A DNA stretch of 64,000 nucleotides from Clostridiales bacterium. Lineage in GTDB: Bacteria > Bacillota > Clostridia > Monoglobales > WRBX01. Positions 1 to 24,331 of this stretch are shown one piece after another; position 1 is the stretch's first letter; every line of letters begins with the position of its first letter. Under the pieces are notes generated by a model. The model had not been told where the DNA came from. It did no database searches and saw only the letters and a program-made list of their open reading frames with translations. The position numbers were made by a program, and so were the translations under genes. Where the stretch lies: positions 19,472 through 83,471 of the forward strand of contig JAISIR010000011.1 in assembly GCA_031261985.1 (NCBI GenBank), written 5' to 3'.

Positions 1-1
1 C

Positions 2-3000
2 ACAATATCTAATAGTAGCGAGCTAACAGCTTTGGCGAACGAATCGTTTGCAGATTTTAGTAGTGAATTTGAAAACTACTATGTAACGTTTAAAGAGGCA
101 GATGGCTCTACTATTTTAAGAGATGTACCTATTATAGATGGAAAGGTTTATGTGCAAGGGTTCTCGGACACAGTTGCTCGAGTAATTGTTCGAGATGATG
201 ATTATGTACAATATGTAGGAGTAACAATAGGGGATTATCCTGCAAGTGGTATTGAGTACACGGTTGCATCGGCAAATGATGTGCCTATTATAAATGGTAA
301 GGTAGAAGTTACATTTACCGACAACACTAAACAAGAATATAATACTTATGATGGTAAGATATATGGTGCAGAATTAGAAGATGTTAAAGTGGCTAGGGTG
401 TTTAGCTCGTCGGGTACTTTAGTAAGCAATGCAATGATTAGTGCGAATGTGGCTAATGGTGCAGGTTCTTCTACACTTAAAACACTTAATTTAGGCGGGC
501 AAGTAGGTATAGGTGGCGTGTTACCTACAAGTGGTACGGTAACCATATATAATGAAGCAAACGCTGCAATTGCTAGCTTGCCATTTAGTGGGACGAATGT
601 TTCTGGCGGGATAGCACTTGATGCAGAGCCTTCGTACGCGATTGTGCGTTCGCTATCTGGCATTCAATACTTAGATGCGATAGTTACATATAAATTAGCT
701 GGCGAAACTTATGGGCTGCCTGTTAAGGGTATGGTAAGTGTATATAATTATTCATCTAACCCTGCGGGTGTAGCTTTAGCTGGTGGTAAAATTAAAGTAG
801 GTGGCTCGCTTAAAGATGGGCAGGTAGATGAGGAGTTTATCGCTACAGATGCCAAAGGTAAAGCATTAATTGTAAGTGCCGATTATAAAAAGATGACAGG
901 TGAGGTTACAACTAACACCACAAAGGGTATTAGGATATATGACAGCAGTGAAAACTTGCTTGCGTTTGGACAAGCCACGATAAATGGGCAGATATTCCAA
1001 AGCGGTGGAGAAGCGACGTTGATGAATTTACCTAGCGTAGATAGTGATTTAACGTTGACTATTAAACGACCTTATACCAGCGATTACAGATATAGTGAAG
1101 AGATATCTAATGGGCGTATTGCATTGCCGCCAGACAAAATGCCACGCGCGGGTGATATTTTAATAGTAGAAGATGAAGCGGGGCTACAATATCCTGGCGT
1201 AGTGCTTGTAGGTAAAAATGGTGCGTTTGTATCGATGATAGAGACGGACGTTACAACAAGGGTATTAGACGAGGGCGGCTTAGTTGAAGAGCTTCCTGCA
1301 GGTAGCATAAGCGATTCTGAGCCTAAAGGTATTTTGAGCGTAGTGCGTGACAATGTTGAAGTTGCGACAAATGTATTGGTAGATAATGGATATGCTTACT
1401 TTAGTACTAGAGATAGCGTGCCGACAGAAGGCGACGAGGTGCATGTTAATAATAAGGCGTTCACTAGTGTGCCGATATCTGGCTGGAAGGTTACGAGTGA
1501 TAAAGGTGAAGTGTTTGAATCGGGTCAGTTATTTGTATTAGATGGATACGCAGCGGAATCGGGCGGGCAAAACATAGTTGTTAAGCCTAAGTTTAGTGAT
1601 GCTAACGAGCGTGTGATACCTTTAGTAAACGGTAAGGCTATCTTAACCGATGGTGAAATGTACACAGGCGAGGGCGGCATAATTATACTAGACGCTGCTA
1701 AGGCGCAGGTAGAAGGAACGTTTGATATCTATGAGCTTCCAGATAGTGGCGCAGGGGTTGACCTAGTTACAATTGGCGAAGTTAATGCCGAAAATATTGC
1801 CGGGAGTATAGAGATTACTTTAGGCTTAGCAGCTAAAGAGTTAACAAACGGGTCGCTTAGTATTTTAAAACGTCCGCAAGAGGGCGCGTATACCTACGCC
1901 GATAAATTAAAAGTATATGGCGATAGGGTGTATGTTGATTATATCCCAACAAGCGAAGCGTTTATGTACCAAAAAACAGCAGACGTTGCGCGTAATAGTA
2001 TAGAGGAAGTTGTTGAAAGCGTGGCGGTTGATGTAAACGACTTTACCGTGCCAAGGACGACACAGCTAACAACGCCTTTTGCTACCGAGACGATTGTGCA
2101 TGTTGATGGAGTGGCTTTAGGTACTTTTGGTGTAAAAACTCTAACAGCGGATGATATAACTGAAGTGAGTATTAAAGACGAGTATGCGGTTATTCCTGCT
2201 CCGTTAACTATAGAAGACTCAAGCGTAATACCAGTGCCAGATGAGGCAGGCTTGCCAGAAGAAGGCGCGCGCGTGTTTGCAAGTGATGCAGAGGGAAAGA
2301 ACCTTCCTGGAATAGAGATTGTTATAAGCAGCGTAAGTTATTATACTTCTAATGTGCCATACACCCAAGTTGATGTGTTAGAGAAGGTAGAAGTAGAGGC
2401 GCATGATGTTTTAGGGTGGAAAGGTTTAGTTGCCAACCAAATTATTGGTGGGCGTGTAAGCTTTAACCCAGGCGAAGATGATGCTGTCGATTATTATATC
2501 ACAGAAGATGATGGAAAGTATATAGTAGAGATTCCTAACGATTTTGAGCCTAGCATTACCGATTGGATGTGGATACTTGATAAATCTGGCAAGGTTATCG
2601 AACGTGCGTATATAACGTGGGGGCCAGAGGATATCGAATATGTATCGGCGACGCATGTTAAAGCTATGAGCGATGATGCGACAACGCCATTGGCTAATGG
2701 CGAGATTGCTTACACAAGCGAAGCAGGGGATGAAATTGTAATCTCGTTAAACGCGAATGGTGAGGCGGATGTGTTAGGTTGTAACTTGCCAAGCTATGAC
2801 GACCCAACTGAAGATGACGATGATGTTCTAGTTACAATAAGTGGCCCGGGTGAGGCAATAGCAAGCGGTGTTTATATTGCAGGATGTTATTATGGGGCTA
2901 AAGAACAACAGGTTAAGGTGCATGTAGGTGCTGGCGAATCTAACTTTAGCGGTGCGTATGTATACTTTGTAGATGCAACAGGCGAGACGGATTATCAGGA

Positions 3001-5890
3001 TAGTTATTTAGTAGATGCAAATGGCGATATAACACTAACTAGAGCTGATGCGACTGATTATTCTGAAGCGGTTGAAGCTGGGACTTATACATCTATGCTT
3101 ATTAAAGATGGGTTGTATATTGTAGACGAACCTATACGAATTTTAGGACGTCAATATGTTACTTCTAAATTAGTAACGGTGCAAGATACCACGACGTACC
3201 TAGATGCAGATGACGAAATCACCTTAATGCCGATTACTCAAGAAGACGAAGTTAGTGGTATGATTGTTAATGCAACGGTAGGTGTAGTTAAGGCGATGGT
3301 GGCACCTTTTGCTGAAGTGTCTGAAGGCGGGCAAACGTATAGAGTGTTTGACGATGTAGCGTTTGACAGAGCTATTATTAAAAAAGAATCTGTTGTAATG
3401 CCGAACGAAGTGATAAAAGTAGGTAGTTTGACAGGCGATATCAAGACATATAGAAGTGCCGATTTAGTAACTATCAAAAATGGTGATGCACCGCTTAAGG
3501 GAGCAGACCTTTACATTAACGCTAAAAAAATTGGGACGACTAATAGCTCAGGTGAGGTAATTGTTCCAGGTAGCAAGTTGCCACAAAGCTCTAGCGAAGT
3601 GGTGACGGTTAAGCAAGGTGCTTCGGCTGTGTTAGGGCTATCGGTTACAATTAATAGAATCGTGTTTACTACTTACGATGTTGCAGAGGGTAACTTGGTT
3701 CGTGTATATGATAATAGAGATGGCTCTACACCGGCTGACGGTGGTACGCTGGTTATAAATAGTGTGGAATATCCTATTAGTAGCCAAGGCGTTACATCTG
3801 TTCCTAGTGCTGTGGCAAAGGCTTTGACCGAGAAATCGATTATATTTGTGTATACCTCAGGCAAAGAGATTCTTCCGTTAGCTACTATAATTGTAGAGCA
3901 AGACGGGGATAAGACGACAACGATTAGGACTGCCGAGATTCCGTCTGAAATAACAGATGAGTATAAGCTAATTATAAACGGGAATACATTTGTATATAAA
4001 GATGGAATGTGTGTTGTTCCTGGTTATGCAATACCGTTAGACCCTGATGTTGACGAGGTAACGATTACCGATTTAGCAGGGGTAATACAAGTTGGTGCCA
4101 AAGTAATGCTTGGTAACAGAGAGTGGACCAGCAGCGCGCCAGAGGATTTAAGCGAGCTAGTTGAGTTTAAGCTTGGCAATGGTGGGCGTATAGATGTTGA
4201 GGCGGACGATGAAACGATATATGAGCTTAATGTGTTTGCAGCAAGCAATAATGCTAAAGGTAATGTTAATCGAATGATGTTGCCGATTAGCTTTAACACT
4301 CAAACAGTTGAAGTAACAGCAATTGATGCAAAAGGCGAGACGATGTTGACAGATAGCCATCCTTATTATCAGATTAGCGAGGCAGGGTTTGATGCCAGCG
4401 TTGTTAATGCGCGAGGAAGGGTATTGTTAACGACTACATTGCCAGATGATTATGCTAAATTTGACGAGCCTATATTTACAGTTAAGTTTAAGGCAAAAGC
4501 GGGCGATGCTATGCCGTTTGACCAAATAGTTCTGCCTAAGACTGGGTCGTTAAGTGCCGATGTTGCAGCGCAAATTGGTTTGGTAGGGCGTGATGAATTA
4601 TCGACCGTTAACTATAAGGCGCAGCTGAATAAGTTTGTGATAAACCTAGCCGATTACATGGTTAAAATTGTGCCGCTAAGTGCGGGTGAGCAAGCATCTG
4701 AGCTTAAATTTGATATCCAAGTTAAAAACGCAAGCGGTGACTTAGTTAATGCTTCTTCTGCCCAATTAAATGTAAGTGCTAGAGGTATTGATGATGGCAA
4801 CGTAAGTGCGATTGATGCAGATGGTGAGTTCACTTACACCCCTGGAGCAGGTGATGGTGTAGTAGATGAAGATGCTGTTCCGGTTATATTAGAAGCAACG
4901 TATGATGATGGCATTGCGCAACCTGTTTCTAGCACGGTTTCGGTTAATGTGGTATCGCTTAACGTACCGATATTTGATGACTTAAAGCCAGGGTATGATA
5001 GCGAAGAGCTTAACGATGTAGAAGTTGTTTACGGTGGCATTTTAGGTAGTGCGTTTGCCGAGGCGGGCGTTAAGTATAACGTAAAAACCTCTGGAGGGAC
5101 TCCTATATTTAGTTCGACCGGTAAGAGAATGTCGCTATCGTCGCTTCCTACCGAGACGGGGCTTAGGTTAAGCGTAGAAAGTGCGTATACCAACCCAGAC
5201 GGTTTAACAGTTGCAGCGTTTGGCAGCGGATTTAACGACGAAACCTGGGTTAAGCCATACACCTTTAACGTAGTTACTAATGGTGTTATAGAGGGGTATG
5301 TAAAACTTGGTAGTAAGGAAGAAAACTCTATACCAGCGTTTGGGTATTATCCTGCAGGCAGGAACTTCCATGGTGGAATATTAGTACAGTTAGTTAAGTA
5401 TAACGCAACTAGCGGGGCTATTGACTTAACTGGAGCTAAAGAGACTTACACCGATAGCAATGGTAAGTATAGGCTTTCACTTAAAGATATAAACTTAACA
5501 TCTAGTTTGCCAGATGGTTGGAGCTATGCGATTAAGTATTCTAGGCGTGGCGTTAGTGATTATAACACGCGCGAGGAGTATTATTTAGATAAGGTTATCC
5601 CGCTTAATATTGTAAACTATGAATTAGGCGATAACGTTACACTAAGCAATGGCATAGATAATGTAGATTATTTGGCGGCAGGTGCGTTTTATAACAACGA
5701 AGTTATAACCGCAGATGACTACAACAAGGTTAAGGGGCTAATAGGTGCAGGCGAGTTTAGCAAAGACTATGCTGATAACTTAGGTGTAGACATTAACGAG
5801 TACAATGGTATAGACGTCGGCGATTTGGTAATTGTAAGAGGTAACATGAACAAAACAATTTATCAACGTGGCGATGTAAGGGATATTTAA
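2..5890 (+). CDS. Giant cell-surface protein whose 5' end lies outside the window (at least 1962 aa visible). Tandem beta-sandwich modules, one cohesin-like module, and a C-terminal beta-sandwich plus dockerin-like tail.
   Basis: The frame is open from nt 2: TISNSSELTA precedes the TTG at 32 used by the ORF track, with no in-frame stop upstream. The visible N-terminus has no signal peptide, unlike the next three genes. The ORF runs 5.9 kb uninterrupted to TAA at 5888-5890. The antisense ORFs are short shadows. Confidence 0.9.
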   Translation, partial: TISNSSELTALANESFADFSSEFENYYVTFKEADGSTILRDVPIIDGKVYVQGFSDTVARVIVRDDDYVQYVGVTIGDYPASGIEYTVASANDVPIINGKVEVTFTDNTKQEYNTYDGKIYGAELEDVKVARVFSSSGTLVSNAMISANVANGAGSSTLKTLNLGGQVGIGGVLPTSGTVTIYNEANAAIASLPFSGTNVSGGIALDAEPSYAIVRSLSGIQYLDAIVTYKLAGETYGLPVKGMVSVYNYSSNPAGVALAGGKIKVGGSLKDGQVDEEFIATDAKGKALIVSADYKKMTGEVTTNTTKGIRIYDSSENLLAFGQATINGQIFQSGGEATLMNLPSVDSDLTLTIKRPYTSDYRYSEEISNGRIALPPDKMPRAGDILIVEDEAGLQYPGVVLVGKNGAFVSMIETDVTTRVLDEGGLVEELPAGSISDSEPKGILSVVRDNVEVATNVLVDNGYAYFSTRDSVPTEGDEVHVNNKAFTSVPISGWKVTSDKGEVFESGQLFVLDGYAAESGGQNIVVKPKFSDANERVIPLVNGKAILTDGEMYTGEGGIIILDAAKAQVEGTFDIYELPDSGAGVDLVTIGEVNAENIAGSIEITLGLAAKELTNGSLSILKRPQEGAYTYADKLKVYGDRVYVDYIPTSEAFMYQKTADVARNSIEEVVESVAVDVNDFTVPRTTQLTTPFATETIVHVDGVALGTFGVKTLTADDITEVSIKDEYAVIPAPLTIEDSSVIPVPDEAGLPEEGARVFASDAEGKNLPGIEIVISSVSYYTSNVPYTQVDVLEKVEVEAHDVLGWKGLVANQIIGGRVSFNPGEDDAVDYYITEDDGKYIVEIPNDFEPSITDWMWILDKSGKVIERAYITWGPEDIEYVSATHVKAMSDDATTPLANGEIAYTSEAGDEIVISLNANGEADVLGCNLPSYDDPTEDDDDVLVTISGPGEAIASGVYIAGCYYGAKEQQVKVHVGAGESNFSGAYVYFVDATGETDYQDSYLVDANGDITLTRADATDYSEAVEAGTYTSMLIKDGLYIVDEPIRILGRQYVTSKLVTVQDTTTYLDADDEITLMPITQEDEVSGMIVNATVGVVKAMVAPFAEVSEGGQTYRVFDDVAFDRAIIKKESVVMPNEVIKVGSLTGDIKTYRSADLVTIKNGDAPLKGADLYINAKKIGTTNSSGEVIVPGSKLPQSSSEVVTVKQGASAVLGLSVTINRIVFTTYDVAEGNLVRVYDNRDGSTPADGGTLVINSVEYPISSQGVTSVPSAVAKALTEKSIIFVYTSGKEILPLATIIVEQDGDKTTTIRTAEIPSEITDEYKLIINGNTFVYKDGMCVVPGYAIPLDPDVDEVTITDLAGVIQVGAKVMLGNREWTSSAPEDLSELVEFKLGNGGRIDVEADDETIYELNVFAASNNAKGNVNRMMLPISFNTQTVEVTAIDAKGETMLTDSHPYYQISEAGFDASVVNARGRVLLTTTLPDDYAKFDEPIFTVKFKAKAGDAMPFDQIVLPKTGSLSADVAAQIGLVGRDELSTVNYKAQLNKFVINLADYMVKIVPLSAGEQASELKFDIQVKNASGDLVNASSAQLNVSARGIDDGNVSAIDADGEFTYTPGAGDGVVDEDAVPVILEATYDDGIAQPVSSTVSVNVVSLNVPIFDDLKPGYDSEELNDVEVVYGGILGSAFAEAGVKYNVKTSGGTPIFSSTGKRMSLSSLPTETGLRLSVESAYTNPDGLTVAAFGSGFNDETWVKPYTFNVVTNGVIEGYVKLGSKEENSIPAFGYYPAGRNFHGGILVQLVKYNATSGAIDLTGAKETYTDSNGKYRLSLKDINLTSSLPDGWSYAIKYSRRGVSDYNTREEYYLDKVIPLNIVNYELGDNVTLSNGIDNVDYLAAGAFYNNEVITADDYNKVKGLIGAGEFSKDYADNLGVDINEYNGIDVGDLVIVRGNMNKTIYQRGDVRDI
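4150..4545 (+). other. Cohesin-like module in giant protein 1
   Basis: Segment ...LVEFKLGNGGRIDVEADDETIYELNVFAASNNAKGNVNRMMLPISFNTQTVEVTAIDAKG...PIFTVKFKAKAGDAMPF. It fits the cohesin pattern: strands ending in a hydrophobic-x-hydrophobic-x-F/Y-D/N-x-x-x-hydrophobic motif, about 130 aa in total. Manual motif call only. Confidence 0.45.
5657..5853 (+). other. Dockerin-like two-segment tail (first segment degenerate, second EF-hand-like)
   Basis: LAAGAFYNNEVITADDYNKVKGLIG ... DINEYNGIDVGDLVIVRGNMNK. The second segment has a 12-residue D-x-N-x-x-N-G-x-D-x-x-D loop followed by a helix. The segment is conserved in the next two genes. Confidence 0.45.
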
Positions 5891-5913
5891 TTGAGTAAAA
5901 AGTAAATATAAAT

Positions 5914-5955
5914 AAGAGGGTGCGGCATGATAAAAAAGCCGCGCCTTCTTTAATA
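5914..5955 (+). terminator. Rho-independent terminator-like hairpin after giant gene 1
   Basis: aagagggtgcggc / gccgcgccttctt forms a 13-bp stem (two G-U pairs) around an 11-nt loop, followed by a T-rich stretch. Confidence 0.55.
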
Positions 5956-6054
5956 TTTGGAAAGATTTAACACTGATAGAAACACGGATTTTCTTGATTA
6001 AATTCTACATTTTAACAAGTTTGTAACAAAATTATTACAAATTTCGATTTGCTA

Positions 6055-6083
6055 TTGCAATTTATAAAAAGTTTATCTATAAT
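6055..6083 (+). promoter_or_regulatory. Sigma-A type promoter for giant gene 2
   Basis: TTGCAA (6055-6060), a 17-nt spacer, then TATAAT (6078-6083), about 130 nt upstream of the ATG at 6214. Confidence 0.6.
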
Positions 6084-6213
6084 AGATTATGAGGCAGTAA
6101 AAATTCTTTTATTGTTTAAAAAGCCTTTTATTGATAAAGAATCTTTAGGTTGTTCGGCATAAAAAGCGTGTTAGTAATTGATTAATCAGTTCTAACAGAA
6201 GGGGCAATGTTTT

Positions 6214-10275: not shown

Positions 10276-10411
10276 TCTAGTTAATATTATTAATGTTTAA
10301 TAAACTAAGATGAAGTTGTTTAAAAGTAGTTTTAGATTAGCGCTAATTTGTTTATTTTCCCTGATATATAATATATCTTGGATACCCAAGAATGAAAGGA
10401 TGTAATCTGTT

Positions 10412-13400
10412 ATGAGTACGTTACAAAGTGTTAAAAGAAGACTGACATCTATAGTTACAACAGGTGCAATGATGCTATCTATGTTTGCGCCTTTAGGATA
10501 TGTAAATGCAGAAGGCAATAATACATTGCCTATTGATGCGCCATTGAGCGCGCAAGCGGTCTCGCTTACTACTACACCCAATGTGGAATTTAAATTAGTT
10601 CCATTAAAAGATGCAGATGGTAATATCGTGGAGACTTTGGACCCGACATTGAATAAGACATATATCGATAAAAACCATGCGCCAAAGAAGTCGGACGGAA
10701 CGCTAGACAACGTGGCGGCAGCGGCGGTAGAAGAGGGCGACGGAGTTGAGGCTAAGGCTGCAACTTATGACAACACAGGTGTGTATGACATTGAGGTATC
10801 GCTTAAAGATATCGATAATGTATTTGCTTTTCAGTTACCATTACAGTTTGACCCTAAAACTGTGCAGGTTGATAGCGTTACGCTAAGCGATAAGTTCGCA
10901 GCAGGCGGTTGGGAGTTATTGCCATACTCTGAGGGCGAATTTGCGCCTTATGTGTTAAGCGGTGCTTCTGATAGTGTAATTGACCTTGGCACAATAGATG
11001 ATGCCGTTCAATCGGACATCAATGCAGACGGTAAAATGGTATTTAGTGTTGTGTGGAGTGGTGCGGATGATGCGAACCTTGACGATGACCCTAAAAATGC
11101 TGATATAGGCAATAATGAGGGCGCAGGCGAGAAGTTCTTTACCGTTAGGATTACATCTAACTTTACCGATTCTATGACAACGGAAGAAAGTTTGATTGAA
11201 GCGGCAGAAGATAAGGCTGATAAAGATGGCACGGATTTTGCAACTGCAAAAGACGCACTAGCGCTACTTGCTAGCACTTATGCAGAGAAACGTAATGATT
11301 ATTATACCGAGTTGGATAAAGGCGTTCTTGCTGATTTTGAAACACTAAAAACAAATTATGGCTTGTTTGTAACTGCAAGTAAGGCTTTAGATGCAGCTCG
11401 AATTGCTAATGGTTACTATCCTACAACTTTTGCAGGGCGTAACATGTATGCTCAAGAGGATGCGAACTCTATATTTGCAAAGGCGGATATAATTTCTGAC
11501 GATGGCACTATGGTTTCGTACACTAATCTATCTTATAATTTTGAAGTAGAGGGTAGTGACACTGTTAAGCCAATGCAAGTAGTTGAGTATAACGCAGGGA
11601 TATCTATTGATACTTTAGGTGAGGCAACTCTTGCTGATACTACAGAATATGGTATTGACCAAGAGGCTTACGATTTATTAATTACAAAAGGAAAGCAATT
11701 AAATAAAACATACATAACTACTAAAGTTGGCGATATTAATGATGACGGTGAGACTATAGATGAGGCTGGTTATGAACAAATTTTAGATTGGTATGTTGCG
11801 GTTCCAGAGAAAGTTGCCGACGATGATGATTTAGACTATAATTATAGGAGTTTGTTGTTTTATGACGACGGGATGTATTTATCCGAAGATTCGGATTTTG
11901 CAAAGGAATATGGTACGATAGCGTTGGAAACGTCAGGTACAAGTGCAATTTGGGAGTACACTCCTGGCACACACCAAGGGCAGATAGTGCTTGTAGCGGT
12001 TGCTAAAGGTAAACATAATACCCCAAAATCTAACTATGAAGTGCAACAAGCCATTACGCTTTATGGTGTAGGGTATTCGGTTTCTACATCTGTTGGTGAG
12101 CTAGCATTGCCAACGAGTGAAATAGGCATAAGAGATGTAGACGGTGTTCGCACAGGTATAATTGCCACAAGTATGTTGCAAGAGTCTGACGATTTAATAA
12201 TTTCTACAATTGGCGGAGCTGTGGCAGGCGACCAAACAGTTGAAACGGTTGACAAAACTAAATATGTTTCGGCTGGTGATTCTATCCCTGGTGCAACGGA
12301 CGACCAAGCGGGTGTTGCAGGTGATGATAACGAAGCGTTTGTAAGTGATGAGGGGCCTAAAACTACATATACATTAATCAAAAAAGGCGACGGTGGCACT
12401 TGGACGACAGAGACGGATGCAAAAACAATAGTGACAGACTCTGAAGGTGATTTTGGCAGGGGGATATCGCTAAAAAGTTTATTGACAACTAATAAAGGTG
12501 CGTTCTTGGCGTCAGACGGGACAACTCCTTCGACTGGTGTATATAAGCTAATTGTAACATCGGACGCGGGAAATGCAAATGGTTACTTAACCGAGCTTAG
12601 TGGCGTTAGAACAGGCATGGGCGTAGATGATGATACATGGACATACACCGTTTACTTTGAGTTAAAAGAAGAAGGTTCTATCCGTGGGCGCGTTATGTTA
12701 GAAGGTTATGATGGCAGAGGGCTCGAGCTTGGTTCACTTGAAGCAGAAGGCGCATTCCGCAAAGATGTGAATGTCAAGTTAGTAAGGGTTCCAGAGTCTC
12801 AAAGAGAGATGTTTGAATCGGGCGAAGTTTCGGACGACCCTTATATTGGTTATGATTACACAAAAGATAACGAAGAAATTGATATAATATCTAGTGTTAA
12901 AACAGATTCGACAGGATACTTTACAGTGTTCACACGCAATAATAATGATAAAGTAGATTATACTGATGGGAATCATTATTACTTATTGTTCGAGGCACGC
13001 AATTTAAATTATGTTTATAGCGGAGCGACGGGTAGCGAGCATGATGGAAATCGCATGTATTTGAGGAAGAAAATTAAACTTACTAATACAATAGGTGATT
13101 CGGACAATGATACGCAAATAGATAAAAACGTATTTATTGGTAATCTTGGGCAAACAGATGTAAACGATATTATTCTTTATGCTGGCGCGTTTACAGACGG
13201 TGAGGCAATTACAACCGAGAGCGATTATGCTAGAATAAGAGCTGTTGTAGGTAAGGCGGTTGAGCTTGAGGGTGACCAAGGCGCGAAGACATTGCCAGCA
13301 GCATACACTTATGATGATAAAGATATCAACTTAGATGCAAAAGTTGCTCCTGATGATTTAGCTAAGGTTAAAAAGAATGTTAACGAGAGGTCTTATGTGG

Positions 13401-13483
13401 CTGGCACCGCTGATGAGTATAACTTTAGTATGCTAGTTGAAGAACTTGCTCCAGTTGTTCCTGAAGATCCTGTAATAGACTAA
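10412..13483 (+). CDS. Giant secreted surface protein (1023 aa) with a signal peptide, an N-proximal cohesin-like module, and a C-terminal beta-sandwich plus dockerin-like tail
   Basis: ATG with an AAAGGA SD. Signal peptide MSTLQSVKRRLTSIVTTGAMMLSMFAPLGYVNA|E. No terminator is visible between gene 2 and this gene, so they may be co-transcribed. Confidence 0.92.
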   Translation: MSTLQSVKRRLTSIVTTGAMMLSMFAPLGYVNAEGNNTLPIDAPLSAQAVSLTTTPNVEFKLVPLKDADGNIVETLDPTLNKTYIDKNHAPKKSDGTLDNVAAAAVEEGDGVEAKAATYDNTGVYDIEVSLKDIDNVFAFQLPLQFDPKTVQVDSVTLSDKFAAGGWELLPYSEGEFAPYVLSGASDSVIDLGTIDDAVQSDINADGKMVFSVVWSGADDANLDDDPKNADIGNNEGAGEKFFTVRITSNFTDSMTTEESLIEAAEDKADKDGTDFATAKDALALLASTYAEKRNDYYTELDKGVLADFETLKTNYGLFVTASKALDAARIANGYYPTTFAGRNMYAQEDANSIFAKADIISDDGTMVSYTNLSYNFEVEGSDTVKPMQVVEYNAGISIDTLGEATLADTTEYGIDQEAYDLLITKGKQLNKTYITTKVGDINDDGETIDEAGYEQILDWYVAVPEKVADDDDLDYNYRSLLFYDDGMYLSEDSDFAKEYGTIALETSGTSAIWEYTPGTHQGQIVLVAVAKGKHNTPKSNYEVQQAITLYGVGYSVSTSVGELALPTSEIGIRDVDGVRTGIIATSMLQESDDLIISTIGGAVAGDQTVETVDKTKYVSAGDSIPGATDDQAGVAGDDNEAFVSDEGPKTTYTLIKKGDGGTWTTETDAKTIVTDSEGDFGRGISLKSLLTTNKGAFLASDGTTPSTGVYKLIVTSDAGNANGYLTELSGVRTGMGVDDDTWTYTVYFELKEEGSIRGRVMLEGYDGRGLELGSLEAEGAFRKDVNVKLVRVPESQREMFESGEVSDDPYIGYDYTKDNEEIDIISSVKTDSTGYFTVFTRNNNDKVDYTDGNHYYLLFEARNLNYVYSGATGSEHDGNRMYLRKKIKLTNTIGDSDNDTQIDKNVFIGNLGQTDVNDIILYAGAFTDGEAITTESDYARIRAVVGKAVELEGDQGAKTLPAAYTYDDKDINLDAKVAPDDLAKVKKNVNERSYVAGTADEYNFSMLVEELAPVVPEDPVID
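10760..11170 (+). other. Cohesin-like module in giant protein 3
   Basis: GVYDIEVSLKDIDNVFAFQLPLQFDPKTVQVDSVTLSDKF ... EKFFTVRITSNF. This is the best match of the four to the classical cohesin pattern. Confidence 0.55.
13176..13387 (+). other. Dockerin-like tail of giant protein 3
   Basis: LYAGAFTDGEAITTESDYARIRAVVG ... DINLDAKVAPDDLAKVKKNVNE. Confidence 0.4.
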
Positions 13484-13503
13484 ATAATTTTAAGTGATAA
13501 TAC

Positions 13504-13537
13504 AAAAAGCGAGGTGCGCGAAACGCCTCGTTTTTTT
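13504..13537 (+). terminator. Rho-independent terminator after giant gene 3
   Basis: The stem cgaggtg/cgcctcg is extended by A-run/T-run pairing and followed by seven T residues (13531-13537). Confidence 0.8.
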
Positions 13538-13820
13538 GTACATTTTTTTAGTGTGAAAGGCGAGTTTTCCTCTATATTATGTAATGACGAGAAATATCAC
13601 AGACAAAATATTATGCAATGTTACAGAATCTTTACATTTTATGTATTTTTATGTTGCAATTTGCAATTTACTATAGACGAATGTGATAAGCATTTAGTAT
13701 AATAAGAATGTGGCGGTGTATCTATTTTTAAATGCTGCCCGAATATAGGAAATGCAAAAAAAGTGAGTTGTAAACAGGGAAAAAAGATAATTAGTTAATG
13801 ATTAATAAGAGGTGTTTGGT

Positions 13821-16800
13821 ATGAATCCATTAAAAAATGTTTTAGCTGTTAGGGCGATATCTTTTGTACTAACATTAGGGGTAGTAATAAGCAGTTTTAC
13901 GCCTGTTACCCTTGTTAGTGCTGCGCAAGATTCATCTGCTAACCCAGAGGCTGCACCAGTTGTGGCGGCTGAAACTGGGGCGGCGGCAGCTGTTGACCCT
14001 GTAATCGCTGAGTATGAATCTTATGCTACTTATGACCCAGATTTAAACGCAGCAGAGAAGAATCAAATTTTAGTGGATGCGTATGCCGTTGATGGTAAGA
14101 CGCTTAACATGGCAGACGGGACTACTTATGCAGATAAAACTCCGTTGGCGGGCATGCAAAACATAGGTGTAGGCAGTATTGTTCGTGTAACGGTTGCGTT
14201 AAAAGATGTAGAGCGTTTAGGCGGGGCGAATTTGCCGCTATCGTATAATAACTCGGTGGCTACAGTTGTAGAAAAAGATACTTGGTTAGAGGCGCCTAAT
14301 AATATTTCTATGGAAAAAAATGGTGGCGCTTCGTTACTTAATAAATATATTTTTAAGGGTACGCTTTTAGGTGCAAGTGATGATAAAAGCTATGGATATG
14401 ATTTGCCGACAGGCGAGCCGGCACGTCCGTTTAATGAGTCTAACCTTCCAGAGATTACTAATAATGACGCAGATTTAGCTAGCTCTAATTGGGGTAAGGT
14501 ATCGCTAAGTGTAGAGGGGCGCAACGGCGCGACTACTTATTTTGGCGATGGTCCCTTAGATGGCGATGTAGTTGGTACGCAAAGTGTGTACTCGGTTTAT
14601 TTTAAGATAATTAGTGAGGGCGAGCCTAGCTTTAAACTTTTACAGCGGAGTGATTCGGTTACTCCCGACCAATTAACATGGCTTAGAACCTCTAATATAG
14701 ATGGTACAGGGAACAGAGTATTATCGGAGCGTGTGCCTGTGTATATCTCGCACGAGACAGCGACATTAAAGGTTAATAACAGCACGGTTTCGTATAATCC
14801 AGAGGAGTATAAAGTAGTTTCTAAAACAGATGCAGAAGATGCAAAGGAGACAAATGAGAACGTAATAGTGGGCGATAAATATGGACTGATTCCGCGTGCC
14901 GATTTAGAAGGGTTAGACGGGCTTAGTGTATATAGAATCAATCGCGCAAAATGGTTTTGCCCTGATTGGGATGGCGACCCTCAACCATCTAACTTTTTAA
15001 GTAGTGCAAGTTTTGGTGGGGTGTTGCTTCCTAGATTAAAGGCTAGTTATAAACCAACAGTTATGGATTTGCCGACGGTTATAAGCCGAGATAATGGCGA
15101 AACACACGATTTATATATAAGTGAGTTGCCCGAGACCGAGGAAAGTCCTGGTGTATACTCTGCTGATGTAGAGCCGATATTATATACCCCCAACGGAACT
15201 AGGCTTACGCTAGCTGATATTGCTGGTGAAACGTTTGGGCGCAACAGTAATGGTAGTTGGTATATACAAAATATCCCGGATAGCATATTCGCGCAGGACG
15301 AGCTACAACAGCTTAGTGTTGCGTTTAAAACCCCAGATGATGTGCTTAATACATACTCTGAGACAGATAAAGTTAAGGCAGAGGAGTTTTTTGCAGATGG
15401 CACTATGAGCGCGTATGTATCGCAAGATGAACCTTTTGGGACTAAAGTTGTTAATGTAGATGGTGATTCACTTGTTAGTGCTAAAGATAAGATTGCGTAT
15501 TTGAATATTCAAGCAGGGGCGTGGTTAGCTAACCGTGTAAAGATGTTATCATTTGATATAAATTATGATAGTGCGATAAGACATAATTATATGCTTGCCG
15601 AGAAATTAGGCGATGCGATAGAAGCTAGAGCTGATTATGAATTAGGAAGCAATTCTCTCAAATTTTCTGTCTATGGTATTAACATAGACGAAGTAAAGAC
15701 TAAGTATGATGTGATATCGATACCTTTTAATATTGATAAGACAAATGCAGACCCGATATTTACACTTTCGGGCGGTGAATTTTGCTCGAGCCCTACAATT
15801 GAGGATGTACTTATGGCGGGCGATATTACTTTTGGTGATGTAGATTTTGTCATTAAAAATGGTGAGGCTAAGGGTAGCGATGAGATATTTGTAATAGAGG
15901 AGCCTGCATCTAGAGAAGTGATAATCGGCGATGTTCCTGCAGGGAGTAAGGCGACTATTACTTTAAAAGAGACGGAAAGCGTTGCGGAAAAAGAGGTTGA
16001 AGTGTACTTTGTAGGCACGCAAGATGAGGCATTGACGCCTTCGACTGATGAAAAAATTTATGTGTATCAGCCAGGTGGATTAATTTATGTATATAAACTT
16101 CCTGATGGCTATGATTTTGTTAAAGTAGAGGTTGTAACACTTGAAACCGATGGCGATGGTAAGATAGAGCAGCCAGAGAAAGAGATTAGTGACCCGACGG
16201 TAATAGAGAATAAAAAAGAGGCGGTTATCACTTTAACAGAGGTGAATAGCATCCCCGATATAGTTGGGTTGACAAGCGGTGTTGACGCTGATGAACTACT
16301 TGAGATGTTGCCTAAAGAAGTAGGGGCGAAGATAGAGATAGCGACTGACGACGAAAAGCTTATGCGTGATGTTAAAATTAAGGTGGCGTCAGTTATAAAA
16401 AGTGGGTTGGGTAAAGAATCGGGCTGGTATGGAACAGTTGGGACTTTACCGATAGGTGCGTATGATTATGTTGGTGTGTTGGCACTTGATAGTCAAGTAG
16501 GGAACCCTAATAATCTAGTGGCAAATGTAAGGGTTAAGGTAGAAAAGACTAATCCTGACGATTTAACCGTGATACAAGATGAGAATGGTGGCGAGGCGGT
16601 AATTGGCGGCACCAGCGATGATGAGCCTACTGATTTAGAAGTGATAGTTACAGATGGGACGGACGAGCCTAAGATAAAGGTGCATGTTGTTCCGATTGGT
16701 AGGGGCGATAATGGCGAGAGGTTTAGTGTTGAGAAGCAAGGCGATAAAGTTGTTAGGATTCCTGTTGATATAGATAAAGATGGTAACTCTGATTTTTCAC

Positions 16801-19391
16801 TTTTCGATTCAAACGGTGACGGAAAAGTGGATGACGTTATCGCGCCTTATGGTGAAAAGATATCTGAAGTTTTATTCTTTGATAGTAATGATGATGCAAA
16901 GAGCGACCAGATATTAGTAGATATTGATGGTGATGCTATTTATGATTATATCTTTATAGATGAAAATGCAGATTTAACGCCAGAAATCATCATTAAAGAT
17001 GATGGTGATGACACGACGGCCTTAATAGGTAAGGATGTCGATGCTGACGGAGTAATAGATGAGACTGATAGCATGCTTATAGAGGGCGCAGGCGGTGATG
17101 GCTTAAATGCGGATATCCCTAAAGAAATTTGGGTAGTCAAATATGGTGATGAGGACCCTGTTATAGATATCCCTGATGGATTTGTTGTTATTGATGTTGG
17201 TGTGATTGTAGAAGACCCAGAGAATCCTGGTGAGGAGATTGTAATTAAGCCAGACCCTCCAGCTGGTGAAGAGCCAGGCGATAATGTTGGTTTGGGGCAG
17301 ATGATTATAGATACTGTCTACCCAATTGCAGACATAAGTGGTATTTATAAGGGGACTACTCTAATTGACCTTCCTTTGCCTAATAGTGTTATGGTTAAAG
17401 TTGCTATTAAAAAGCGCGATTCTCTAATATATAGAAATTATAACATCGACATACTAGAGAATGGCTGGAGTGGAGAGCATGAGAGCGAGTATCCTTTGCC
17501 GCTGGGGACGTATACCTTTAAAGGTGCTTTAAAACTACAGGATAAATATTATAACCCAGATAATGTGTTAGCAAGTGTCAATGTAAATGTAGACTTGGTA
17601 AAAGATGAAGACCATACCGTTATACAAGACGTAGGCTCGAGTGCTATAGTATTAGACAATATTGTAGCGGACTTGAATGTTGAGCTAACGTTGACGGGTA
17701 TTAAAAACATGCAGAGCTACACGCGAAAAGCGACCATTCATTTTGTAGATGATGCGAATGACCTTGAAGCTATGCAGACGGTCGACACAGATGGCGATGG
17801 AATTGATGATATCGAGATATGGGAGCTTGTGCCAGAGAATAATGTGTATACTTACGACCCTACAGATTATCCGCCAGGGGTTGCCGAAACTTTAATTAGC
17901 GCGCGTATGTGGAAGACTAAAAAAGACAGTGTAGGCGAGGATTATGTTACACCACCAATTGAGATAGAAGTAGGGCGAGGCGCGATTTTTGTCAGCAAGA
18001 TTCCGGCTATTAACATCAGCGTAGTGGAGGGGACGAAGGTAAGGGATGTTAATAGAGCTCTTCCTAGTTCGATTGCTGCGACGGTTTCGATTTTAAAGAA
18101 TAATGTTAAGACGGAAGCAGAGCGAGCATTTAATGCTAATGCGTGGGTATGGCAAAATAATGCGTTAAACTTAAATGACACTACAGAGCTAGAGCCAGGG
18201 CAATATATAATAAATGGTGCTTTAGATTTGACTGATACGCTGGTAACTAATCCGCAGAATTTAAAGGTTATTGCAAACATCAATGTATCTGAAAAAGCCG
18301 AGCAGCCAGGTGAAATACCGACTGATGATATAAGTAAATTACGTCAGGGTAGGGTATATGTAACACTAGCTGCTAAGACCCATGATACGATTACTCTAAA
18401 CCCAGCGGAGGGCGGAACTGAAGGAGCAGGCGAGTTTGTATATGGTATTTCGACCCAAGAAGGCGTTCTTCCCGCAACATGGCAGAGCGGGACAGGGTTT
18501 ACAGGCTTGCAAGCTAGCACCACTTATTACCTTTATGCAAAGCGTTTAGGGAACGAAACATACAAGGAATCTTCACCTTCTAGCCAATTGGCGGTTACAA
18601 CTAATGTTCAGCCTGGTGGCGGCGGTGGCGGTGGTGGCGGCGGTGCTAGCCCTAGCCCAGATGTTTCGCCTAAGCCTACACCTACTTCATCTAGTAGTGG
18701 AGGCGGCGAACCTAGCCCAATTCCTAGCGTGAAGCCAATTGAAAACCCAGACCCTGATGATAAGTTGCCTTATTTAACTTGGTATGAACATAATAGTTAT
18801 GTATCTGGGCGTGATGATGGTTCGTTTGACCCACAAGGTGCTATAAAGCGCGAGGAAATGTCGGCTATGTTATTTAGGTTATTAACTGCTCATAGTGTAG
18901 CCAAGTTTGATACTAAGTTAACAAAATTTAAAGATTCTCAAAGGCGTTGGAGTGAGGAATCTATTGCTACAATGCAAACGGCTGGCATAGTTAAAGGGTA
19001 CGAAGACGGAACCTTTATGCCAGATAGGGCTATAACTCGTGCCGAGTTCGCTACTATGTTGACTCGTTTAGGTAATAGTACTCAAGCGGTAAATGGTAAA
19101 ACTATTTTAAGTGATATGGAAGGACATTGGGCTATAGATAGTATGAGCTATGTAATTCAGCGTGGTTGGATGTCTGGCTATGACGATGGTACCTTTAGGC
19201 CGAATAGTCCTGTTAATAGGGCAGAGGTTGTTGTTACTTTGAACAGGTTAATGCACAGGAATATGTCGCCTGAGTTTATTGATGCTTTGCCTGAATTGCC
19301 TACATTTAGTGACGTGCCAAAGGGGCATTGGGCTTACTATTATGTAATGTCAGCTGCGACGACGGTGTGCCTTAAGAATATTAGTTTATAG
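13821..19391 (+). CDS. SLH-anchored giant surface protein (about 1857 aa): signal peptide, cohesin-like module, Ig-like repeats, Asp-rich Ca-loop cluster, poly-Gly/PT linker and three SLH repeats. Candidate anchoring scaffoldin.
   Basis: The ATG at 13821 is preferred over the GTG at 13812 because the SD AAGAGGTG ends 6 nt upstream of it. Signal peptide MNPLKNVLAVRAISFVLTLGVVISSFTPVTLVSA|A. The C-terminus carries SLH signatures. Confidence 0.93.
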   Translation: MNPLKNVLAVRAISFVLTLGVVISSFTPVTLVSAAQDSSANPEAAPVVAAETGAAAAVDPVIAEYESYATYDPDLNAAEKNQILVDAYAVDGKTLNMADGTTYADKTPLAGMQNIGVGSIVRVTVALKDVERLGGANLPLSYNNSVATVVEKDTWLEAPNNISMEKNGGASLLNKYIFKGTLLGASDDKSYGYDLPTGEPARPFNESNLPEITNNDADLASSNWGKVSLSVEGRNGATTYFGDGPLDGDVVGTQSVYSVYFKIISEGEPSFKLLQRSDSVTPDQLTWLRTSNIDGTGNRVLSERVPVYISHETATLKVNNSTVSYNPEEYKVVSKTDAEDAKETNENVIVGDKYGLIPRADLEGLDGLSVYRINRAKWFCPDWDGDPQPSNFLSSASFGGVLLPRLKASYKPTVMDLPTVISRDNGETHDLYISELPETEESPGVYSADVEPILYTPNGTRLTLADIAGETFGRNSNGSWYIQNIPDSIFAQDELQQLSVAFKTPDDVLNTYSETDKVKAEEFFADGTMSAYVSQDEPFGTKVVNVDGDSLVSAKDKIAYLNIQAGAWLANRVKMLSFDINYDSAIRHNYMLAEKLGDAIEARADYELGSNSLKFSVYGINIDEVKTKYDVISIPFNIDKTNADPIFTLSGGEFCSSPTIEDVLMAGDITFGDVDFVIKNGEAKGSDEIFVIEEPASREVIIGDVPAGSKATITLKETESVAEKEVEVYFVGTQDEALTPSTDEKIYVYQPGGLIYVYKLPDGYDFVKVEVVTLETDGDGKIEQPEKEISDPTVIENKKEAVITLTEVNSIPDIVGLTSGVDADELLEMLPKEVGAKIEIATDDEKLMRDVKIKVASVIKSGLGKESGWYGTVGTLPIGAYDYVGVLALDSQVGNPNNLVANVRVKVEKTNPDDLTVIQDENGGEAVIGGTSDDEPTDLEVIVTDGTDEPKIKVHVVPIGRGDNGERFSVEKQGDKVVRIPVDIDKDGNSDFSLFDSNGDGKVDDVIAPYGEKISEVLFFDSNDDAKSDQILVDIDGDAIYDYIFIDENADLTPEIIIKDDGDDTTALIGKDVDADGVIDETDSMLIEGAGGDGLNADIPKEIWVVKYGDEDPVIDIPDGFVVIDVGVIVEDPENPGEEIVIKPDPPAGEEPGDNVGLGQMIIDTVYPIADISGIYKGTTLIDLPLPNSVMVKVAIKKRDSLIYRNYNIDILENGWSGEHESEYPLPLGTYTFKGALKLQDKYYNPDNVLASVNVNVDLVKDEDHTVIQDVGSSAIVLDNIVADLNVELTLTGIKNMQSYTRKATIHFVDDANDLEAMQTVDTDGDGIDDIEIWELVPENNVYTYDPTDYPPGVAETLISARMWKTKKDSVGEDYVTPPIEIEVGRGAIFVSKIPAINISVVEGTKVRDVNRALPSSIAATVSILKNNVKTEAERAFNANAWVWQNNALNLNDTTELEPGQYIINGALDLTDTLVTNPQNLKVIANINVSEKAEQPGEIPTDDISKLRQGRVYVTLAAKTHDTITLNPAEGGTEGAGEFVYGISTQEGVLPATWQSGTGFTGLQASTTYYLYAKRLGNETYKESSPSSQLAVTTNVQPGGGGGGGGGGASPSPDVSPKPTPTSSSSGGGEPSPIPSVKPIENPDPDDKLPYLTWYEHNSYVSGRDDGSFDPQGAIKREEMSAMLFRLLTAHSVAKFDTKLTKFKDSQRRWSEESIATMQTAGIVKGYEDGTFMPDRAITRAEFATMLTRLGNSTQAVNGKTILSDMEGHWAIDSMSYVIQRGWMSGYDDGTFRPNSPVNRAEVVVTLNRLMHRNMSPEFIDALPELPTFSDVPKGHWAYYYVMSAATTVCLKNISL
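14140..14640 (+). other. Cohesin-like module in the SLH protein
   Basis: GVGSIVRVTVALKDVERLGGANLPLSYNNSVATVVEKD ... SVYSVYFKIISEGEPSF. Confidence 0.45.
16768..17070 (+). other. Cluster of Asp-rich calcium-binding-type loops
   Basis: DIDKDGNSDFSLFDSNGDGKVDDV ... FFDSNDDAKSDQILVDIDGDAIYDY ... KDVDADGVIDETD. These are repeated DxDxDG / DxNxDG loops. Confidence 0.5.
18766..19370 (+). other. Three S-layer homology (SLH) repeats
   Basis: ...GRDDGSFDPQGAIKREEMSAMLFRLL; FKDSQRRWSEESIATMQTAGIVKGYEDGTFMPDRAITRAEFATMLTRL; LSDMEGHWAIDSMSYVIQRGWMSGYDDGTFRPNSPVNRAEVVVTLNRL; trailing FSDVPKGHWAYYYV. They are preceded by G11 and a P/T/S linker (18606-18760). Confidence 0.85.
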
Positions 19392-19405
19392 TATATAAGC
19401 GATTT

Positions 19406-19440
19406 AAAAACCCCAATCTAAAAGGTTGGGGTTTTTGTTT
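19406..19440 (+). terminator. Rho-independent terminator after the SLH protein gene
   Basis: aaaaaccccaa / ttggggttttt hairpin followed by a T-run. Confidence 0.85.
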
Positions 19441-22288: not shown

Positions 22289-22345
22289 AAGCCACGCATT
22301 CTCCTAATTTAAATTAAGTAACCGCTGAACTTAAAAACTTGTTGA

Positions 22346-23542: not shown

Positions 23543-24291
23543 TTAAAATTCGGAGCGATATCCGAAGTGAAAATTATTTTAAATACAATATTATTCTCGT
23601 GATTTTGGGCATTCTCGGTATAATAATAAGGCAAGTAAAACTCTAACGCGTCGGTAACACTTGGGTCGATTTTACCTTTAAAGTTAAGTGTAAGCCTGCC
23701 GTTAGAATCGGCATAAATATAATCGGCAGCTGTGATATTGTACTTAGAGTTAAATAGCGAGTTAGGGCTGCCATTGGGTGCGGAAAACTGTGTATTTATA
23801 ACGCCGTCGCCAATTGTTTTGGTAAACTTGTCGGCGGGGGTAAGTGCCCATACATCTTTAGTTGGGTTGGTAATAACAAAGTTTAGAGATAAATCGCCAG
23901 CTTTACTTATAGCTGATTTTTTATCTAGCGTTAGATAAAAGGTATTACCTTGCCAATATTGGTTTAATACTTTAAGCCCGTCTAGTTCGGGCTCGATAGG
24001 CACAAAGACTATTCCTTTGCTAGTGGTTGCCGTTATACTTTGGCTAGAAGACTCTGCTATGGGTTCATCGATAGATTCGTCTAATGCAATAAGTGAATCG
24101 CCCTGTTCTTCCTCGGTTGGTTCTTCTTCTACAAAGTCGACGCCTTCGGCTAGCATAACAATAGGTGTAGATGCGGATTCTGGAACAGAAGCCGCACCTT
24201 CAAAACCCATTGCATATTCTTGAGAGGCATATACCACGCCGACACATAATATGAATATGGCGTACGACCATAACATTACTTGCTTAAGCAT
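23530..24291 (-). CDS. Secreted TasA-like accessory protein (253 aa); TapA-like role is hypothetical
   Basis: Signal peptide MLKQVMLWSYAIFILCVGVVYA|S, then an acidic linker (EEEPTEEEQGD), then a beta-rich domain with AGDLSLNFVITNPTKDVW, similar to the PGD...F.v.N.G box of the two upstream subunits. Its stop overlaps the peptidase start by 13 nt, indicating translational coupling. Confidence 0.85.
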   Translation of the reverse strand: MLKQVMLWSYAIFILCVGVVYASQEYAMGFEGAASVPESASTPIVMLAEGVDFVEEEPTEEEQGDSLIALDESIDEPIAESSSQSITATTSKGIVFVPIEPELDGLKVLNQYWQGNTFYLTLDKKSAISKAGDLSLNFVITNPTKDVWALTPADKFTKTIGDGVINTQFSAPNGSPNSLFNSKYNITAADYIYADSNGRLTLNFKGKIDPSVTDALEFYLPYYYTENAQNHENNIVFKIIFTSDIAPNFNWTL

Positions 24292-24331
24292 AGAAATACC
24301 TCCTGAAAAATTAAATTTTAATTAACAATTT

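Follow-up and report, generated by a model that had tools for sequence, protein, structure and literature searches.

Can cohesin and dockerin modules be put together on a bacterial surface without any recognizable enzyme for them to carry? This question is raised by four giant genes, here called g1 to g4, that occupy the first 19.4 kb of a 64-kb stretch of DNA from an uncultured gut bacterium of the Clostridia (Clostridiales bacterium, contig JAISIR010000011.1 of assembly GCA_031261985.1); this whole stretch of 64,000 nucleotides is referred to as the window. An earlier note, made by reading the letters alone, had taken the quartet for an enzyme-free, cellulosome-style assembly in which an SLH protein (g4) anchors three dockerin-tailed giants (g1, g2, and g3) to the cell wall. 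We find that interpretation partly supported, as the module identities and the logic of the anchor seem to hold, and we think that the quartet probably encodes a non-cellulosomal cohesin–dockerin surface assembly. The four genes are consecutive and lie all on the + strand, as had been noticed and as the listing of open reading frames (ORFs) confirms:

2..5890, + strand, g1: truncated at its 5' end, with 1962 codons in the window (ORF and translation)
6214..10275, + strand, g2: secreted protein of 1353 aa
10412..13483, + strand, g3: secreted protein of 1023 aa
13504-13536, strong terminator-like hairpin 3' of g3
13812..19391, + strand, g4: wall-anchored protein of 1859 aa from a GTG start (1856 aa in public records)
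19405-19437, strong terminator-like hairpin 3' of g4

The full-length g1 protein, available from a public contig (L005, protein P0004), has 2189 aa including a signal peptide, and signal-peptide-like starts are also found on g2, g3, and g4. Upstream of g1, the same public contig carries BioY and then SpoVAD and SpoVAC on the opposite strand. Since these genes lie on the other strand upstream and a terminator-like hairpin lies downstream, the cluster is a closed four-gene set. Read from the N-terminus, g1 is formed by a long orphan part, a putative cohesin, a predicted beta-sandwich, and a dockerin-like tail; g2 has the same order after an orphan part of ~730 aa, and g3 begins with the cohesin, which is followed by an orphan middle, the beta-sandwich, and the tail. 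In g4, a signal peptide precedes an N-terminal cohesin, a stalk of ~1250 aa, a run of ten glycines (G10), a linker rich in proline, threonine, and serine (P/T/S), and three SLH repeats. All four proteins are rich in acidic residues (D+E 14-17%) and nearly free of cysteine. BLASTP comparisons among them showed that the C-terminal ~600 aa are common to g1 and g2 (E=1e-15) and that g3 has the cohesin-like core and the final ~200 aa in common with both; BLASTP self-comparison detected no internal repeats in any of the four.

Standard annotation gives few hints of this architecture. Whole-protein Pfam and NCBIfam scans of g1-g4 reported the SLH repeats of g4 as the sole family, and phmmer of each protein against all PDB sequences gave nothing real; matches of g4 to single-chain variable fragments were dismissed, as they arise from its glycine linker. 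Word-indexed searches of 5.8 billion proteins with g3, with g4 deprived of its SLH part, and with a 22-sequence alignment (A4) returned their own public copies only. An exact public copy of g2 is annotated as 'hypothetical protein LBM38_03990, MAG Clostridiales bacterium' (MAG, metagenome-assembled genome). In the hmmscan that the earlier note had proposed as a check, no Cohesin or Dockerin match was obtained for the whole proteins even at E<=1. Taken literally, this is the result that it had named as speaking against its own reading, and it is reversed by the analysis of isolated segments and of family profiles. The segments in question are the following:

4178..4723, + strand, g1 cohesin-like module (window aa ~1393-1574)
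8422..8865, + strand, g2 cohesin-like module (aa ~737-884)
10730..11269, + strand, g3 cohesin-like module (aa ~107-286)
14097..14819, + strand, g4 N-terminal cohesin, anchor class (aa ~96-336)

The motifs from which the cohesins had been proposed are all present (g1 aa1407, g2 aa753, g3 aa124, g4 aa123). When isolated pieces of 195-241 aa were scanned against 24,736 Pfam models, Cohesin (PF00963, gathering cut-off 24.1 bits) was the top or sole family reported for g4 (21.1 bits, E=3.7e-4), g2 (20.9 bits, E=4.4e-4), and g3 (15.7 bits, E=0.018), and the g1 segment gave no Pfam Cohesin match. As a point of method, the cohesin signal was hidden in the whole-protein hmmscan and was revealed by isolating the segments (E about 4e-4); long orphan multidomain proteins may need this kind of segment-wise scanning.

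The family to which the giants belong provides further evidence. An exhaustive HMMER scan of 1.84 billion representative proteins with a profile of the shared regions found 27 proteins, i.e., the three giants and 24 distant relatives (P0005-P0028). A cohesin profile built from the relatives only, with no window sequences, gave 53 bits for g3, 39 for g2, 22.5 for g1, and 6.3 for g4. The family profile A5 reaches 93.8 bits on the g1 cohesin, a score that marks its boundaries only, because A5 contains the g1-g3 segments; by direct evidence, the g1 cohesin appears as the weakest of the four. Of the family cohesin segments, 12/17 match PF00963, and two full-length relatives, P0006 (33.2 bits) and P0010 (36.7 bits), exceed the Cohesin gathering cut-off, the match in P0006 falling on the stretch that aligns to the window profile. 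Against the PDB, the three best matches of A5 are cohesins (5lxv_A with E=0.0016, then 4uyp_A and 3l8q_A).

The g4 cohesin can be aligned to the N-terminal parts of SLH proteins encoded in two related loci (described below). A profile of four syntenic anchor cohesins, from which g4 was left out, scored 24.2 bits on g4 vs <=11.8 bits in 5000 shuffles. The anchor-cohesin profile A10, with g4 included, had cohesins in all of its top 10 PDB matches, mostly of type II or anchor type (best 3l8q_A, E=4.9e-10), and type II/anchor cohesins from Clostridium thermocellum and A. cellulolyticus are the best matches of this class. The hhalign comparison of the giant class with the g4 class aligned 42 columns at 89% probability, so that the cohesins of the quartet appear to fall into two loosely related classes, g1-g3 vs g4. 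With sub-threshold Pfam matches on one hand and family profiles that match only solved cohesins on the other, we regard the modules of all four proteins as divergent cohesins, in agreement with what had been proposed. Family profiles run over the six-frame translation of the window detected no further cohesin or tail outside the quartet.

The first three proteins end in tails that had been interpreted as dockerins, and the motifs on which this was based are present at g1 aa1930, g2 aa1312, and g3 aa971:

5657..5869, + strand, g1 dockerin-like tail (...GAFYNNEVITADDYNKVKGLIG...DINEYNGIDVGDLVIVRGNM...)
10030..10227, + strand, g2 dockerin-like tail (...PGAFSESTIIKPEDYYAVRDRIG...DINEVNGIDPSDLAIMRINLG...)
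13166..13402, + strand, g3 dockerin-like tail (...AGAFTDGEAITTESDYARIRAVVG...DINLDAKVAPDDLAKVKKNV...)

In isolation, these tails gave no match to Pfam Dockerin_1 (PF00404) at E<=10, and 8/25 tails of the family do match it (best E=1.3e-11); sub-threshold Dockerin matches were also seen in the whole proteins P0008 (E=0.0018) and P0027 (E=5.9e-4). The profiles are more informative. One built from just the three window tails already placed dockerins first in the PDB (2jnk, 2vn5, 2vn6, 4u3s; E=0.01-0.07), with both repeat segments covered. The family tail profile A6, made from 25 tails, had dockerins in all of its top 20 PDB matches, comprising type I dockerins and type II dockerins joined to an X module (X-Doc); the best were the CipB X-dockerin 5k39_B (E=2.3e-6), 2vn6_B (6e-6), and the CipA X-Doc 2b59_B (7.9e-5). 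On the g1 and g3 tails A6 scores 72.9 and 52.2 bits, respectively, as a profile that contains the window tails.

A dockerin is recognized by two tandem segments of ~22 residues, in each of which a helix follows a calcium loop of 12 residues with ligands at positions 1, 3, 5, 9, and 12. The tail alignment has the two-fold internal repeat that is typical of dockerins (I-T-x-x-D-Y-x-x-I-K-x-x-V-G and I-D-x-G-D-L-x-x-V-x-x-x-x-G), and the second calcium loop forms the family signature DINEYxGIDxxD. In that loop, g1 and g2 keep the ligands at positions 1, 3, 9, and 12 (with Tyr or Val at 5), and g3 keeps those at 1, 3, 5, and 12. Position 1 of the first loop is Ala in all three window tails, and a canonical first loop is retained by some relatives, e.g., GDYDGNGTIASAD in P0008. 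We therefore read the tails of g1-g3 as divergent dockerins placed behind a beta-sandwich, and consider it very likely that the module identities, of cohesins and dockerins alike, are correct. A separate EF-hand- or dockerin-like loop, DINDDGETIDEA, occurs in the orphan middle of g3 (~11732-11767, aa 441-452), far from the C-terminal tail.

Immediately before each tail there is a beta-rich module of ~130-165 aa, conserved in g1, g2, g3, and the 24 relatives, in the position that an X module would take:

5282..5674, + strand, g1 beta-sandwich spacer, X-module position
9631..10032, + strand, g2 beta-sandwich spacer, X-module position
12674..13168, + strand, g3 beta-sandwich spacer, X-module position

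Searched against the PDB, the profile of this module matched only Bap B-repeats (E=2.6e-4) and, marginally, SusC/TonB N-terminal domains (the SusC domain at E about 0.3-0.5), with no similarity to known X modules. The suggested assignment to CarboxypepD_reg (PF13620) is not supported, as this family was not found in the whole proteins nor in the isolated pre-tail segments at E<=10. The tail profile itself runs a few residues into the X-Doc junction of 5k39_B and 2b59_B.

The fourth protein differs in its C-terminal half, where the following features were located:

16767..17069, + strand, g4 acidic stretch with five DxDxDG-type loops (aa 986-1086, motif count)
18615..18776, + strand, g4 G10 run and P/T/S-rich linker (direct reading)
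18777..19388, + strand, g4 three SLH repeats and a C-terminal partial SLH-like segment (PF00395)

The three SLH repeats are confirmed (PF00395, E=2.4e-34, 117.5 bits in 3 stretches, above the family cut-off in the Pfam scan), and the P/T/S linker can be read directly, with the small correction that the glycine run before it has ten residues and not the eleven first counted. With a cohesin and C-terminal SLH repeats in one protein, near dockerin-bearing partners, g4 has the architecture of an anchoring scaffoldin. The acidic stretch gave no family match and may be a calcium-binding part of the stalk, FG-GAP- or EF-hand-like; one further DxDxDG-type loop occurs at aa 1325. The stalk also has three modules of ~110 aa (16224-16556, 17274-17606, and 17970-18302; aa 805-915, 1155-1265, and 1387-1497), each closing with NPxN(L/V)-x-A-x-V-x-V-x-V, which by eye resemble bacterial Ig-like domains (Big_4-type) and were detected neither by Pfam nor by BLAST self-comparison.

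The anchoring role of g4 can be judged from the neighbourhoods of the relatives. Most of the longer relatives have the same layout as the giants, i.e., cohesin, beta-sandwich, and C-terminal tail; a cohesin-like module lies upstream of the tail in 15/24, and the tail match ends <=35 residues from the C-terminus in every one. The ten relatives that were looked up are all singleton clusters, each on one contig, and those with a name come from Oscillospiraceae MAGs. The domains found in the 20 relatives that were scanned are LRR/BspA, Big_2, InlB B-repeat, FG-GAP, PMP, and DUF6273. The last of these, present in P0005, was also considered for the N-terminus of g2 and rejected, as BLASTP gives no similarity.

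A search of one genome per GTDB species with a narrower tail alignment yielded two related loci, L002 and L003. In L002 (MAG Oscillospiraceae Roe453_bin121), a 1130-aa protein with DUF6273, cohesin, beta-sandwich, and tail, which equals P0005 in length and domain matches, is followed by two SLH proteins: one of 927 aa with a g4-like N-terminal cohesin, and one of 552 aa with a Pfam Cohesin match of 23.7 bits and three SLH repeats. In L003 (MAG Oscillospiraceae Lab288P1bin2, with a sample code, Lab288, that PMC7024585 gives for the termite Labiotermes labralis), a tail-bearing protein of 789 aa has three proteins after it: one of 349 aa with a g4-like cohesin, an SLH protein of 725 aa with an N-terminal cohesin, and a cohesin and SLH protein of 550 aa. 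A metagenome scan provided no locus beyond the contig of L003 itself. Tail-bearing proteins thus adjoin cohesin and SLH proteins in 3/3 readable loci (window, L002, and L003). In our opinion, this pairing is the strongest independent support for the anchoring inference, and the synteny in two other Oscillospiraceae loci argues for the proposal that g4 is the wall anchor of the tailed giants. For a binding of tails to cohesins, this shared neighbourhood is the one indirect indication.

The other half of the question is whether enzymes take part. Pfam, NCBIfam, and PDB sequence searches detected no catalytic or carbohydrate-binding module (CBM) family in the quartet, as had been stated, and catalytic or CBM domains were found in 0/20 of the scanned relatives. 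In particular, families of glycoside hydrolases (GH), carbohydrate esterases (CE), polysaccharide lyases (PL), and CBM are missing from the quartet and those 20 relatives; because these enzyme and CBM features were looked for and not found, the quartet cannot be called a cellulosome sensu stricto. Outside the cluster, the window ORFs that were scanned have housekeeping, sporulation, and surface functions (e.g., Lon, PurD, the alpha subunit of DNA polymerase III, PNPase, PPDK, GlmS, a phosphoglucosamine-mutase-like protein, YpeB, and a cell-wall hydrolase), with no GH or CBM domain. 'Enzyme-free' is nevertheless a statement on what is detectable, because ~4500 aa of the giants are orphan and the rest of the genome lies outside our view. 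The description stands for the quartet in that sense and goes too far beyond the cluster, as dockerin-bearing enzymes encoded elsewhere could use the cohesins of the giants.

From these data, the following assembly can be proposed. The protein g4 would act as an anchoring scaffoldin, with its three SLH repeats binding non-covalently to a wall polymer, and with the ~1250-aa stalk, the G10 run, and the P/T/S linker keeping its one N-terminal cohesin at a distance from the cell. The cargo would be g1, g2, and g3, which are predicted to be secreted giants of an adhesin-like kind, acidic and rich in beta structure, in which no catalytic module is detectable, and their C-terminal dockerins would plug into the g4 cohesin. 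We judge this anchoring of the giants on g4 to be reasonably likely. By its module content, each giant seems to carry both a socket and a plug, a point that the earlier note had overlooked. Since each one bears a cohesin of a class other than that of g4, it could capture the dockerin of another giant, and the assembly would then grow past one giant per anchor, giving short chains or a layered coat. In its working, the quartet would resemble the type II anchoring tier of a cellulosome. In a gut habitat, it would serve for adhesion or as a surface coat, rather than for the hydrolysis of polysaccharides; the chances of such an adhesive or structural role we take to be about even. A bolder version, which we find doubtful, is a self-extending enzyme-free chain in which the dockerin of one giant binds the internal cohesin of the next and the SLH protein, with a cohesin and no dockerin, roots the chain on the wall. 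Such a chain would mean that the plug and socket of the cellulosome were put to a new use, to give a polymeric adhesive fibre or coat made from interchangeable adhesin cassettes (the relatives have LRR, Ig-like, and InlB-repeat heads), and its parts would form a distinct cohesin/dockerin subfamily, so far unannotated, that is found only in Oscillospiraceae-like gut Clostridia.

Cohesin–dockerin assembly on the cell surface is a known principle. In C. thermocellum, anchoring scaffoldins attach through SLH repeats, and the classical anchors of the X module and type II dockerin of CipA are SdbA, OlpB, and Orf2p. The logic is the same as the one proposed here, since the C-terminal X-dockerin of a large non-catalytic protein plugs into anchors formed by cohesin(s) and SLH repeats, and the CipA X-Doc chains 2b59_B and 3kcp_A are matched by the tail profile at E about 1e-4. 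However, CipA has nine type I cohesins and a CBM3 for the loading of enzymes, whereas each giant has a single cohesin and lacks a CBM and visible enzyme partners.

The closest known system is the docking of CipB to anchoring scaffoldins. CipB (Cthe_1806) of C. thermocellum has 2177 aa and comprises modules whose function is unknown, an X module, and a type II dockerin; its partners are the type II cohesins on the anchoring scaffoldins of the cell surface, namely ScaB, ScaC, ScaE, ScaF, and ScaH (PDB 5k39 and 5m0y; PMC5141474). Like the giants, it is a giant secreted protein with modules of unknown function that ends in a beta-sandwich (the X module) and a dockerin, and its X-dockerin is the best solved-structure match of their tail profile (E=2.3e-6). 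Unlike the giants, each of which bears a cohesin, CipB has none of its own as described and is a component of the cellulosome system of a cellulolytic organism; in the window, anchor and cargo are encoded in a dedicated four-gene cluster with no cellulosomal enzymes in view. The spacer of the giants also differs from CipB in having no sequence similarity to known X modules, and their calcium loops are degenerate.

A second precedent comes from Ruminococcus bromii, placed with the named relatives in one broad clostridial group. Its amylosome protein Amy4 has a cohesin and a dockerin on one chain, and the dockerin recognizes its own cohesin, which allows self-aggregation (PMC4611034). Attachment to the wall takes place in R. 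bromii via Sca2, which resembles the ScaE anchor of R. flavefaciens, and not via SLH repeats (PMC4611034). In view of CipB (PMC5141474) and Amy4 (PMC4611034), the previous claim that the architecture matches no described system was too strong. Amy4 shares with the giants the presence of cohesin and dockerin on one polypeptide; unlike them it is an amylase (GH13), and no sequence relationship is detectable beyond the module families. Besides, a survey by Peer et al. in 2009 reportedly found cohesin and dockerin modules to be widespread outside cellulolytic systems, often without enzymes and sometimes on one chain. That survey is said to have catalogued modules detectable by sequence; the subfamily of the giants, unlike those of the catalogue, escapes standard whole-protein Pfam annotation and has a conserved SLH-cohesin neighbour. 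What differs here is the combination of divergent modules, an anchor-plus-cargo cluster, a socket and a plug in each cargo protein, and no visible enzymes.

Several observations weigh against the assembly that we propose. All the window cohesins are under the Pfam gathering cut-off, and the direct Pfam match is nil for the g1 cohesin and the three tails. The window dockerins have no Asp at position 1 of the first loop and miss one canonical ligand in the second, and therefore their calcium-dependent folding and binding may be altered or lost. There are two classes of cohesin vs one class of dockerin in the window, so that the assignment of partners is ambiguous, and the synteny is based on two other loci only. 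The ~4500 aa of the giants with no detectable homology could hide a new enzyme fold. Structure prediction does not come to the rescue: the AlphaFold2 models of g4 aa60-340 (from an alignment of the four paralogues only) and of the g2 tail (from a paralogue-only alignment) have predicted local distance difference test (pLDDT) values of 31.7 and 38.9, respectively, and are unusable. The low-confidence model of the g2 tail has strands over the pre-tail module and helices on both predicted dockerin helix segments, and Foldseek comparison of it with the PDB gave nothing below E=0.05, with unrelated folds only.

Some of these points feed rival explanations. One is that the modules have decayed, or are just generic linkers of beta-sandwich and helical type, and no longer bind one another; the quartet would then consist of four surface adhesins or S-layer-associated proteins, independent of one another and brought together by paralogous expansion. 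The sub-threshold Pfam scores, the first calcium loop degenerate in 3/3 window tails, and the low-confidence structure models would all fit it. Yet the tail is the best-conserved part of proteins that are otherwise ~20-25% identical, with the D, I-N, G, and D-L positions invariant or nearly so, it is always placed at the extreme C-terminus, and the core motifs of the cohesin and the gene neighbourhood are conserved as well. These features point to selection on an interaction, and we hold decay to be very unlikely. If an interaction is selected, it might take place within a giant rather than on g4, the cohesin and dockerin of each one binding intramolecularly, as a clasp, or homotypically, in the manner of Amy4 (PMC4611034), and g4 being an independent S-layer-associated protein with another partner for its cohesin. 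Cohesin and tail on one chain are indeed a conserved feature of the family, and the g4 cohesin is of a separate class. Against such self-association are the SLH-cohesin proteins that adjoin tail-bearing proteins in all three readable loci, and the solved structures closest to the tail, which are X-dockerins with anchor cohesins as their partners; this explanation appears to us highly improbable.

The remaining rival gives the enzymes back to the system. The giants would be monovalent adaptor scaffoldins of a cellulosome- or amylosome-like complex, recruiting dockerin-bearing glycoside hydrolases encoded elsewhere, and g4 would anchor all of them. That the giant cohesins differ in class from that of g4 (the 42 columns at 89% in hhalign) would be in line with this, as such a difference usually means a second tier of specificity in cellulosomes. 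A termite gut, where lignocellulose is digested, is the source of one related MAG, R. bromii organizes amylases via single-cohesin proteins (PMC4611034), and the genome is visible only for 64 kb of an 89-kb contig. Against it stand the quartet and the scanned window ORFs, with no GH, CBM, or other enzyme domain, and the rarity of the module set, which is limited to 27 proteins in 1.84 billion and comes with a catalytic domain in none of the 20 scanned relatives. Moreover, most of the longer members carry cohesin and tail on one chain, which suggests partners inside the family. For these reasons we consider an enzyme scaffold unlikely, and prefer the wall-anchored assembly of giants with no detectable enzymes.

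The surroundings of the cluster deserve some comments. A mobile element or foreign DNA was ruled out, as the remaining window genes are chromosomal ones for housekeeping and sporulation and the cluster stays, in its GC content, inside the range of the whole window. In the termite-gut locus L003, a phage-type integrase lies immediately upstream of the related cluster, and a protein with five HTH_3 domains is encoded downstream of it (L003 3542-4648, 16387-17967), so that the cassette may be on an integrative element there; no genes of these two kinds flank the cluster in the window. Directly 3' of g4, a probable lipoprotein of 343 aa (20038-21069, +) has a lipobox-like N-terminus (GSSAAC) and a T/P-rich linker, with no family match. 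The cluster is also adjoined by a candidate SipW-dependent fibre or matrix locus (21200-25551, minus strand), which comprises a DUF5305 protein (21200-22288), an archaeal/SipW-type signal peptidase I (22346-23542, TIGR02228 E=1e-27), a 253-aa ORF, and two secreted beta-rich proteins of 169 aa. These last two have alike N-termini (a transmembrane segment, then A-V/L-T/S-S-G-x-L...G-T), and one of them has a weak UpsA-pilin match. Further on, the WsfD-like glycan hexose transferase at 25836-27245 (+; NF051875 E=1.3e-36) places surface or S-layer glycosylation genes near the SLH protein. YpeB and a cell-wall hydrolase of the Hydrolase_2 family follow downstream (27339-29251, minus), and SpoVAC and SpoVAD lie upstream (L005 36-1461); as these are sporulation-associated families, the host is probably an endospore-forming member of the Clostridia.

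The proteins described here are close to orphans, with 27 representatives in 1.84 billion sequences and singletons in all ten clusters looked up. If our reading is true, they would add a very divergent dockerin subtype, marked by DINEYxGIDxxD and a degenerate first calcium loop, and two cohesin subtypes. Because whole-protein Pfam annotation misses them, systems of this kind are likely to be undercounted in metagenomes. Orthogonal new cohesin–dockerin pairs would also be useful as parts for the engineering of protein assemblies. Cohesin–dockerin pairing would then be a general, enzyme-independent way of surface display or adhesion in gut Clostridia that are non-cellulolytic or uncultured.

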